Of a stretch of DNA of 64,000 bases, positions 33,343 to 34,650 are shown piece by piece. Position 1 is the first letter of the stretch; each line of letters starts with the position of its first letter. Both the position numbers and the translations under genes were made by a program. Below the pieces are notes generated by a model. That model made no database searches. It saw only the letters and a program-made list of their open reading frames with translations, and was not told the DNA's origin. Origin of the DNA: Shigella phage Henu11; the sequence record OM953433; one strand, given 5' to 3'.

Positions 33343-33416
33343 GCACCTATAGCCCAATTGGAAGAGGCAGCAGACTTAGAATCTGTTCAGTGTGAGTTCG
33401 ACTCTCTCTAGGTGTA
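33343..33416 (+). tRNA. tRNA with Leu anticodon TAG but class I length
   Basis: acceptor gcaccta/taggtgt; anticodon arm gcaga-cttagaa-tctgt; 5-nt variable loop; A73. Confidence 0.55.
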
Positions 33417-33426
33417 CCAAATTAAT

Positions 33427-33499
33427 GCAGGTGTAGCAAAATGGTTATGCGGCTGACTCTTAATCAGTAAGACGATGGGTTCAATTCCCTCCACCTGTA
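33427..33499 (+). tRNA. tRNA-Lys (CTT)
   Basis: acceptor gcaggtg/cacctgt; anticodon arm gctga-ctcttaa-tcagt; CCA encoded. Confidence 0.65.
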
Positions 33500-33508
33500 C
33501 CAAATATC

Positions 33509-33580
33509 GGGGATGTAGTTTACATGGTTAAAACATAAGTTTTGCAAACTTAAGTACAGGGTTCAATTCCCTGCTTCTCC
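33509..33580 (+). tRNA. tRNA-Ala (TGC)
   Basis: acceptor ggggatg/cttctcc with G3:U70 wobble (Ala identity element); anticodon arm taagt-tttgcaa-actta. Confidence 0.75.
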
Positions 33581-33590
33581 ACCAATTAGT

Positions 33591-33661
33591 GCATCCATAG
33601 TTTAAATGGGAAAACTACAGTCTTCCAAACTGAAGTTGAGGGTTCGATTCCCTCTGGATGC
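33591..33661 (+). tRNA. tRNA-Gly (TCC)
   Basis: acceptor gcatcca/tggatgc; anticodon loop cttccaa; T-arm gaggg-ttcgatt-ccctc. Confidence 0.7.
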
Positions 33662-33671
33662 TCCAAATAAT

Positions 33672-33745
33672 GCTGCTTTCGTATAATTGGCTATTGCACA
33701 TCCCTTGTAAGGATGGAGATGCAGGTTCGAGTCCTGTGAGCAGCA
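33672..33745 (+). tRNA. tRNA-Thr (TGT)
   Basis: acceptor gctgctt/gagcagc; anticodon arm catcc-cttgtaa-ggatg; T-loop ttcgagt. Confidence 0.7.
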
Positions 33746-33844
33746 CCAATTTTGAGGTCAAGTGAAAGACCGCTTGAGTCAACTGAAGACCGTAACAAAT
33801 TCCACGGAGTTGAGTTAGCGGCACAACTTCAGACCTCTTTTAAA

Positions 33845-33916
33845 GCTCGCTTAGTTTATACGGTAAAGCCCCATCCTTACAAGTTGGTGAAGAAGGTTCA
33901 AGTCCTTCAGCGAGTA
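33845..33916 (+). tRNA. tRNA-Val (TAC)
   Basis: acceptor gctcgct/agcgagt; anticodon loop cttacaa; T-arm gaagg-ttcaagt-ccttc. Confidence 0.65.
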
Positions 33917-33920
33917 CCAA

Positions 33921-33995
33921 GTTCCAGTATCCCAATTGGCAGAGGATGCAAGCTCAAACCTTGTATTAGTGACGGTTCGAATCCGTCTTGGAACA
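33921..33995 (+). tRNA. tRNA with Leu anticodon CAA but class I length
   Basis: acceptor gttccag/ttggaac; anticodon arm gcaag-ctcaaac-cttgt; 6-nt variable loop; A73. Confidence 0.55.
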
Positions 33996-34013
33996 CCAAA
34001 TTAGGAGATTCCT

Positions 34014-34226
34014 ATGAAGCCTTATGGTAGACATGGTAAAGTTGAAATTGCAAGTTGTGGCTGCTGTGCAGCACATGATGGTGAAGAAGATTATTACAAA
34101 TGGCGTACAGACCATCGTAAACGCTTTCTCAGAAGAGATAAGAAGAGAGCTAGACAGGAATCTCAAAAGGATATTGCAGAATTAGTTCAAATGGATAGAG
34201 CAGCAACCTACGAAGTTGTTAGTTAG
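34014..34226 (+). CDS. hypothetical small Cys-rich basic protein; 3' end overlaps tRNA-Arg
   Basis: ORF track; strong SD AGGAG; last 51 nt lie inside the tRNA-Arg(ACG) gene. Confidence 0.3.
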   Translation: MKPYGRHGKVEIASCGCCAAHDGEEDYYKWRTDHRKRFLRRDKKRARQESQKDIAELVQMDRAATYEVVS

Positions 34227-34249
34227 GGGTTCGAATCCTCTATTCTGCA
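34176..34249 (+). tRNA. tRNA-Arg (ACG)
   Basis: acceptor gcagaat/attctgc; D-arm gttc-aaatggata-gagc; anticodon arm gcaac-ctacgaa-gttgt; CCA encoded. Confidence 0.75.
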
Positions 34250-34270
34250 CCAAATTTAATAGGTAACATT

Positions 34271-34498
34271 ATGTATAAACTCATAGTTGAAAAACATAAA
34301 GATGACCACAAGATTGAAACAGGTAGATTTGGAGATACTTTCTTTATAGCGGTTGGTTGGCAATGTGACCCGTTAGAAGTTAGAAAGATTGTTTATAACT
34401 TTGCTGGATTAGAACTTAAGCAAGCTATCTTCGAAACATCACTACCTGAAAATAAGGATACTTGCAATAACGCATATATTCTTTCAAGAGTTCGTTAG
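34271..34498 (+). CDS. hypothetical small protein
   Basis: ORF track 75 aa; stop abuts tRNA-Gln. Confidence 0.4.
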   Translation: MYKLIVEKHKDDHKIETGRFGDTFFIAVGWQCDPLEVRKIVYNFAGLELKQAIFETSLPENKDTCNNAYILSRVR

Positions 34499-34569
34499 GG
34501 GATTAGTTTACAAGGTTAAAACCTCGGTCTTTGAAATCGAAGAAGATGGTTCAATTCCATCATCCCCCG
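34498..34569 (+). tRNA. tRNA-Gln (TTG)
   Basis: acceptor ggggat/atcccc; anticodon arm tcggt-ctttgaa-atcga; T-arm gatgg-ttcaatt-ccatc. Confidence 0.65.
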
Positions 34570-34574
34570 CCAAT

Positions 34575-34650
34575 GCTCCATTACTCCAATTGGCAGAGAG
34601 GCCAGATTTAAAATCTGTGTTATGTATCGGTTCGAATCCGATATGGAGTA
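34575..34650 (+). tRNA. tRNA with Leu anticodon TAA but class I length
   Basis: acceptor gctccat/atggagt; anticodon loop tttaaaa; T-arm atcgg-ttcgaat-ccgat; 7-nt variable loop; A73. Confidence 0.55.

Follow-up and report, generated by a model that had tools for sequence, protein, structure and literature searches.

Background

Class I tRNA-Leu, which has a short variable loop where the class II (type II) form has a long variable arm, was described in a bacterium in 2019 for Streptomyces coelicolor, where it needs a leucyl-tRNA synthetase (LeuRS) with an adapted leucine-specific domain (PMC6614811), and the class is also known from animal mitochondria, whose tRNA-Leu have A73 and A14 as identity elements (PMC9976931). 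Here we describe three tRNA-Leu genes of class I architecture in Shigella phage Henu11 (sequence record OM953433), in a stretch of 64,000 nucleotides (nt) that is referred to below as the window, and argue that they are genuine, functional leucine tRNAs of a class I lineage charged by the LeuRS of the host, a reading to which we assign a probability of roughly 0.85. The annotation of these genes as tRNA-Leu is long-standing and the class is already known from mitochondria and Actinobacteria; what seems to be unstated in the searchable literature is the prevalence of class I tRNA-Leu in phages whose hosts use only class II. An earlier reading of the window from its letters alone (the sequence-only reading) had taken bacterial tRNA-Leu to be normally type II, which is correct for Escherichia coli (leuZ, leuX and leuW, 85–87 nt) and incorrect for S. 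coelicolor (PMC6614811) and many other Actinomycetota, which have class I genes.

Architecture of the three tRNA-Leu genes

The following genes were identified by both ARAGORN and the Rfam tRNA model (RF00005):

33343..33419, + strand: tRNA-Leu(UAG), class I, 74 nt plus encoded CCA; variable region UCAGU; A73; G1:U72; Rfam 54.1 bits
33921..33998, + strand: tRNA-Leu(CAA), class I, 75 nt plus CCA; variable region AUUAGU; A73; Rfam 44.0 bits
34575..34653, + strand: tRNA-Leu(UAA), class I, 76 nt plus CCA; variable region GUUAUGU; A73; G1:U72; Rfam 46.9 bits

The Rfam matches end before the CCA (33343–33416, 33921–33995 and 34575–34650) and cover model positions 1–71 of 71, with E values of 8e-10 to 4e-7; the three genes are not chance matches, because their scores lie well over the gathering score of 29. 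The sequence-only reading had placed tRNAs with the anticodons TAG, CAA and TAA at exactly these coordinates, and its description of them (74–76 nt, variable loops of 5–7 nt, A73) agrees with the ARAGORN cloverleaves for all three; automated folding gave the same anticodons and brought to light no long arm that had been overlooked. In standard numbering (positions 44–48) the variable regions are 5, 6 and 7 nt for the UAG, CAA and UAA species, respectively, with no variable stem, while the ARAGORN drawings give 4, 5 and 7 nt because positions 26 and 44 are paired in the UAG and CAA species. An arm of more than 10 nt forming a stem-loop, the mark of class II, is found in none of the three; in each the variable region is short and unpaired and the anticodon is one for leucine, the mark of class I.

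The cloverleaf was examined further in an alignment of 37 diverse class I tRNA-Leu, drawn from bacteria and viral contigs as well as from the window and other phages. Paired residues occupy 97.3% of the cells in the helices, both sides vary in 18 of the 20 pairs, and the covariation score is 0.977, compared with 0.23 for shuffled sequences and at most 0.18 when the pairing partners are slid. The four helices of the class I cloverleaf are thus strongly backed by compensatory changes.

Leucine identity nucleotides

The determinants of leucine identity reported for E. coli are A73, the A15-U48 Levitt pair, G18G19 and A20a, and both the anticodon and the long arm are reported to be dispensable to E. 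coli LeuRS, armless variants being still active (PMC9976931). The D arms of the phage tRNAs are GCC/CAAUUGGAAGA/GGC (UAG), UCC/CAAUUGGCAGA/GGA (CAA) and CUC/CAAUUGGCAGA/GAG (UAA), with a 3-bp stem and an 11-nt loop in each case, and fit the pattern NNN/NAAU(U/C)GGUAGA/NNN of E. coli leuW, leuX and leuZ (for example GCG/AAAUUGGUAGA/CGC). The phage D loops, CAAUUGG(A/C)AGA, accordingly put A14, A15, G18, G19 and A20a at the same places as in the three E. coli genes, and all six tRNAs have U48 directly 5' of the T stem and A73. The T loops are UUCGACU or UUCGAAU, so that G18:U55, G19:C56 and U54:A58 can form, and the G1:U72 wobble is common to the UAA species of the phage and of E. coli (leuZ). 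The 37-sequence alignment shows no variation at G1, U8, A15, G18, G19, A20a, U48 or A73, and at least 90% of its rows have A14. Judged by sequence, all of the leucine identity nucleotides of E. coli LeuRS are kept by the three phage tRNAs.

The phage genes and E. coli leuZ, leuX and leuW therefore share the anticodons UAA, CAA and UAG, respectively, together with A73, A14, A15:U48, G18G19, A20a, the 3-bp D stem and the 11-nt D loop. They differ in that the phage tRNAs are 74–76 nt before the CCA and have no variable stem-loop, compared with 82–84 nt in E. coli, and in having A9 for G9 and C13 for G/A13. The anticodon loops also differ from those of E. coli, for example by A37 in place of G37 in the phage UAG species and by C38 in that with CAA, differences already tabulated for Shigella phage Sf14 (PMC12482277).

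Isotype models agree with the identity nucleotides. The Sf14 counterparts received leucine as their best tRNAscan-SE isotype in every case (UAG, 67.4; CAA, 49.1, with the next isotype at 36.1; UAA, 60.2; PMC12482277), and comparison with the window showed that the CAA and UAA genes are identical in the two phages while the UAG gene differs at 3 positions. The tRNA-Leu(CAA) gene of the window is also identical to that of Felix O1. Of the two options left by the sequence-only reading, that of unusual leucine tRNAs is thus the one borne out, as class I tRNAs with a full leucine identity set. The variable region is nowhere mentioned in the Sf14 paper of 2025 (PMC12482277).

Codon meaning in phage genes

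The meaning of UUA, UUG and CUA was assessed with 72 open reading frames (ORFs) of the window paired with their Felix O1 orthologues (mean amino-acid identity 75%; 16,044 aligned codons). The three codons account for 52% of the leucine codons in these ORFs, and where they could be aligned, 165 of 652 face CUU, CUC or CUG in Felix O1. The phage has no tRNA for CUU or CUC, and CUG is reachable at most through wobble of the UAG species. Replacements by residues other than leucine (I, V, M and F) occur at 14–20% for each of the six leucine codons. With the same interchange and the same replacements across all six, these codons act as one amino acid.

A second comparison, in a supporting role with only 12 informative sites, used the phage nicotinamide phosphoribosyltransferase (NAMPT) and chromosomal enterobacterial homologues (about 45% identity): of the aligned sites, 7 of the 12 with UUA/UUG/CUA and 13 of the 25 with CUU/CUG have leucine as the majority residue. 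The suggestion of the sequence-only reading that the tRNAs are charged with something else, so that UUA, UUG and CUA would be recoded, is contradicted by the codon interchange, the I/V/M/F replacement spectrum and the NAMPT alignment. UUA, UUG and CUA mean leucine in the phage genes, and recoding is rejected on these grounds.

Distribution of class I tRNA-Leu

The 2-kb stretch around the three genes is 100% identical to Shigella phage Henu12 (88% of the stretch aligned) and 93–97% identical to Shigella phages Sf17, Sf18 and Sf19, relatives of Citrobacter phage Moogle and many Felix O1-like phages; because of these close matches the window is assigned to the genome of a myovirus of the Ounavirinae (Mooglevirus-like, Felix O1-like). 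Of 261 phage records that match tRNA-Leu(UAA), 248 do so at 95% identity or more, compared with 80–95% identity for the surrounding 2-kb stretch in most of the records matching that stretch, and the CAA and UAA genes show few or no differences between genera. The tRNA-Leu(UAG) of Felix O1 (26975–27052) is not a homologue of that in the window. It belongs to a lineage seen in T5-like phages such as OSYSP, with which it shares the same T arm, and this second class I lineage (UGAUGG..AAUUGG..AUAC) is 55–62% identical to the genes of the window. Two class I lineages have thus been exchanged in the UAG slot within the Ounavirinae.

Among T5-like phages, a class I tRNA-Leu(UAG) allele (at least 95% identity) is present in 162 records and the class II allele of T5 in 52. 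Closely related phages with the same hosts carry either form, which suggests that class I and class II are functionally interchangeable. Classic T5 had been considered as a precedent for class I tRNA-Leu and was dropped, since its tRNA-Leu(UAG) (11625–11709, 85 nt) is class II. Outside these groups, Lactobacillus phage Bacchae (Herelleviridae) and Vibrio phage 1.081.O (Schizotequatrovirus) each have a class I trio with the anticodons UAG, UAA and CAA (74–77 nt), with a CCAAUUGGCAGAG D loop in most of the six genes and class II Ser and Tyr tRNAs adjoining. Class I architecture, A73 and U48 are common to the tRNA-Leu of OSYSP, Bacchae and 1.081.O and the UAG species of Felix O1. In an approximately unbiased sample of 86 IMG/VR loci, picked through tRNAs other than tRNA-Leu, 23 of 52 tRNA-Leu genes are class I. 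The tRNA-Leu(UAA) gene, the only one of the three used as a query, has no match in 5,426 E. coli genomes.

Bacterial occurrences were collected with a Leu-specific class I pattern that includes the anticodon, run on species-representative bacterial genomes. It replaced an earlier pattern (AATTGGCAGA, 28–34 nt, GTTCGA), which was rejected as Leu-specific because it also matched Asn, Trp, Lys and Thr tRNAs. There were at least 120 matches, and nearly all of those listed are tRNA-Leu genes that occur singly on chromosomes of Actinomycetota (Mycobacterium, Nocardia, Gordonia, Rhodococcus, Corynebacterium, Arthrobacter and others); the actinobacterial genes among the matches listed have the anticodons UAA, UAG, CAA and CAG and the same D arm, GCCCAAUUGGCAGAGGC, as the phage. 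A few of the listed bacterial copies lie in dense tRNA arrays (Cylindrospermum, with 26 tRNAs in 8 kb, Rhodocyclaceae and Cellvibrionaceae).

The phage tRNAs resemble the class I tRNA-Leu of S. coelicolor and other Actinomycetota in the short variable loop, a leucine anticodon, A73 and the GCCCAAUUGGCAGAGGC D arm found in many actinobacterial genes. In contrast, the phage that carries these genes is virulent and infects an enterobacterial host in which all tRNA-Leu are class II, and the variable region is 6–7 nt in two of the genes, not 5 nt. The UAG species is 74–76% identical to class I tRNA-Leu of Mycobacterium, Corynebacterium and Amycolatopsis (59–68% for the other two) and 74–78% across actinobacterial and Lactobacillus-phage genes, and all three are 54–64% identical to E. 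coli tRNA-Leu from which the arm was removed; tRNAs are too short for reliable phylogeny, and at such values common descent and convergence would look alike. Animal mitochondrial tRNA-Leu, although class I, have a dedicated mitochondrial LeuRS and relaxed A/U-rich structures, and no close sequence kinship with them is claimed.

Among sequenced enterobacterial phages, several hundred (the Ounavirinae and most T5-like phages) thus carry class I tRNA-Leu genes though their hosts use only class II. In our literature searches the S. coelicolor paper was the only one found on class I (type I) tRNA-Leu, with none found on phages and none reporting the class in these phages and viral contigs.

Probable charging by the host enzyme and alternative explanations

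A tblastn search of the window and the Felix O1 genome, with E. coli LeuRS as the query, gave no LeuRS-like gene (best E value 0.6), so charging would have to be left to the host enzyme. From the identity nucleotides and by analogy with other systems, the three phage tRNAs are probably leucylated by Shigella/E. coli LeuRS. The enzyme would recognise A73 and the corner that the D and T loops make with the variable region (A14, A15:U48, the placement of G18G19, and A20a), and the leucylated tRNAs would read UUA, UUG and CUA (possibly also CUG), which make up about half of the leucine codons of the phage and are rare in the host. The long arm would be dispensable in phage tRNA-Leu because it is not among the identity elements read by enterobacterial LeuRS, and it may have been lost or never acquired, while the Ser and Tyr tRNAs of the same gene cluster retain theirs. 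Bacterial tyrosyl-tRNA synthetase makes use of the long variable arm. Arm size is reported to be the major serine identity element (PMC9976931), and retention of the arm in the Ser and Tyr tRNAs agrees with these roles in serine and tyrosine identity. Absence of the arm from tRNA-Leu may be neutral, may come from descent within a class I lineage or may have been selected for.

Several observations weigh against charging by the host enzyme. In vitro, the class I tRNA-Leu(CAA) of S. coelicolor was reportedly not leucylated by E. coli LeuRS, which has been described as an enzyme that 'only charges type II tRNALeu' (PMC6614811). The S. coelicolor tRNA has C48, whereas the phage tRNAs have the U48 needed by E. 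coli LeuRS, a difference that this comparison cannot prove to be the cause of the failure. In a crystal complex cited in the same paper, the C-terminal domain of E. coli LeuRS contacts nucleotides 47f–47i of the long arm (PMC6614811), and because of this contact loss of the arm may cost charging efficiency. Two of the phage tRNAs also have a mismatch, U50.U64 in the T stem of tRNA-Leu(UAG) and C27.U43 at the top of the anticodon stem of tRNA-Leu(UAA). Finally, the functional precedent, from OSYSP, holds by analogy, because its tRNAs belong to the other class I lineage, and the two OSYSP tRNA-Leu genes (3693–3769 and 9291–9367), both class I, come from a scan that covered 99 kb, about 12 kb (50,001–61,999) lying outside it.

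In that precedent an anticodon-swapped OSYSP tRNA-Leu(CGA) decodes TCG as leucine in derivatives of E. coli Syn61 and restores the function of cat (13 TCG codons at leucine sites) and asd (9 TCG codons) (bioRxiv 10.64898/2026.09.17.752456). Phages REP8 (OQ174507.1) and REP12 (OQ174511.1) carry tRNA-Leu(UAA) at 98.7% identity, like Felix O1-type records. REP12 appears in a list of 'Recoded E. coli Phages', and a mutant evolved from it, in which the tRNA operon with tRNA-Ser(UGA) is triplicated, reached a higher titre on Syn61-delta-3 (bioRxiv 10.64898/2026.09.17.752456); this behaviour fits with tRNA islands of the Ounavirinae type working in E. coli.

The atypical architecture and the failure of E. 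coli LeuRS on one foreign class I tRNA-Leu are all that speaks for the tRNAs carrying another amino acid, with UUA, UUG and CUA ambiguous or reassigned, and this explanation is close to refuted. The three codons swap freely with CUU, CUC and CUG under the same substitution spectrum and match leucine in cellular homologues as often as the other leucine codons do; host tRNA-Leu would still read them as leucine; and every leucine identity nucleotide is present, with leucine ranked first by isotype models for the Sf14 counterparts. Their anticodons are, moreover, unsuited to the anticodon-reading synthetases for Val, Phe, Met and Ile, having no C36 (Val), no G34 (Phe) and no CAU (Met/Ile). The same LeuRS failure, the single mismatches in two stems and the presence of one decayed tRNA remnant in the cluster (31339–31413) could be taken to mean that the genes are not adaptors at all and are instead decaying pseudogenes, or uncharged tRNA-like decoys or regulators unusable by host LeuRS. 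We regard this as very improbable, given that tRNA-Leu(UAA) is kept at 95% identity or more in 248 records while its 2-kb surroundings reach only 80–95% in most of their matches, that CAA and UAA genes of different genera match completely or almost so, and that the acceptor stem, A73, encoded CCA, T loop and D loop are all intact; compensatory stem changes in the wider family, anticodons that correspond to half of the phage leucine codons and, by analogy, the function of a class I phage tRNA-Leu (OSYSP) in E. coli argue in the same direction.

A different question is whether absence of the arm was itself selected, hiding tRNA-Leu from nucleases for which the long arm of class II tRNAs is the site of recognition or cleavage. 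Phage tRNAs are described as evading tRNA-targeting defences via sequence changes (PMC10264068), the Septu defence as cleaving the variable loop of tRNA-Tyr (PMC13096335), and eukaryotic SLFN11/SLFN14 as restricting translation by cleaving type II tRNAs, including tRNA-Leu. Coliphages have at least two unrelated class I lineages, one of which displaced the other in the UAG slot of the Ounavirinae, and class I outnumbers class II in T5-like phages (162 and 52 records). If true, such counter-defence would let phages go on translating leucine codons once host tRNA-Leu is destroyed, and would account for the independent class I lineages in coliphages and the class I majority in T5-like phages. Nevertheless, literature searches turned up no bacterial nuclease that targets tRNA-Leu via its arm, and class I tRNA-Leu is an ordinary single-copy chromosomal gene across Actinomycetota, so the class I form can be understood without appeal to defence; the data fit equally well if a dispensable arm was lost or if the genes descend from a class I lineage. 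Counter-defence is therefore an unlikely reason for the missing arm, and its extension by analogy, that arm loss is a recurrent selected trait evading still undescribed nucleases aimed at class II architecture, is doubtful to the same degree.

With host-charged leucine tRNAs as the preferred reading, the arm-less tRNA-Leu amounts to a variant that has gone largely unremarked, with the genetic code unchanged: no sense codon is reassigned, and standard translation of the phage is safe. The result is at odds with the published claim that E. coli LeuRS charges type II tRNA-Leu only, and the phage tRNAs would offer natural, evolutionarily tuned armless substrates for studies of LeuRS recognition. 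It is also relevant to those engineered genetic codes in which phage tRNA-Leu is in use already, and to annotation pipelines that expect a long arm in tRNA-Leu.

Other features of the tRNA island and the window

The three genes lie in a tRNA island that is conserved across the Ounavirinae. The island and the other features considered in it are:

30455..35854, all on the + strand: tRNA island, 26 tRNA genes with small ORFs in between (ARAGORN, Rfam)
30398..30427, + strand: promoter-like site directly upstream of the first island tRNA; TTGACA, 18 nt, TATAGT, with TG (consensus match only)
31013..31100, + strand: tRNA-Tyr(GUA), class II, 88 nt, variable stem-loop (ARAGORN)
33004..33093, + strand: tRNA-Ser(UGA), class II, 90 nt, variable stem-loop (ARAGORN)
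35679..35771, + strand: tRNA-Ser(GCU), class II, 93 nt, variable stem-loop (ARAGORN)

The class II comparators of the island are genuine, since ARAGORN gives a variable stem-loop for tRNA-Tyr and for both tRNA-Ser, which were rightly called type II in the sequence-only reading. The Rfam tRNA model supports all of the ARAGORN tRNAs of the island except tRNA-Tyr and tRNA-Ser(UGA); the sole match of the latter in the Rfam clan is a sub-threshold tRNA-Sec hit. The tRNA-Tyr(GUA) gene scores 22.3 bits in Rfam (gathering score 29) and has a mismatched D stem, and its Felix O1 counterpart is marked as a pseudogene in the GenBank record.

A 27th tRNA at 31339–31413 (+) was considered and rejected, the region being a decayed remnant with a degenerate D arm and acceptor stem. 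Its Rfam tRNA score (30.4 bits) is barely over the gathering score, the T arm (GAAGG/UUCGAAU/CCUUC) and the anticodon arm with GAU are intact, ARAGORN makes no call, and its folding energy is no better than that of shuffled sequences (z -0.65). A second near-consensus sigma-70-type promoter-like site lies at 32429–32457 (+), upstream of tRNA-Arg(UCU), and the pair of sites share TTGACA, a spacing of 17–18 nt and TATAGT; the count of promoter-like sites in the region is not above shuffled expectation.

The small ORFs within the island have no Pfam match. One of them, a cysteine-rich ORF of 161 amino acids at 31859–32344 (+) with no Pfam hit at E 0.01, ends in CANCHREVH, which is HNH-like by eye, and may encode a homing endonuclease of the sort common in phage tRNA clusters. 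Another, of 70 amino acids at 34014–34226 (+), begins MKPYGRHGKVEIASCGCCAAHDGEE, has a good ribosome-binding site and no Pfam hit, and overlaps about 50 nt of the tRNA-Arg(ACG) gene at 34176–34252 (+). Elsewhere in the window, at 553–3323 (+), a ribose-phosphate pyrophosphokinase-like ORF (299 amino acids) adjoins the NAMPT ORF (608 amino acids), the two forming an NAD-salvage pair, and chromosomal genes of Klebsiella, Phytobacter and Erwinia are close homologues of the phage NAMPT (about 45% identity).

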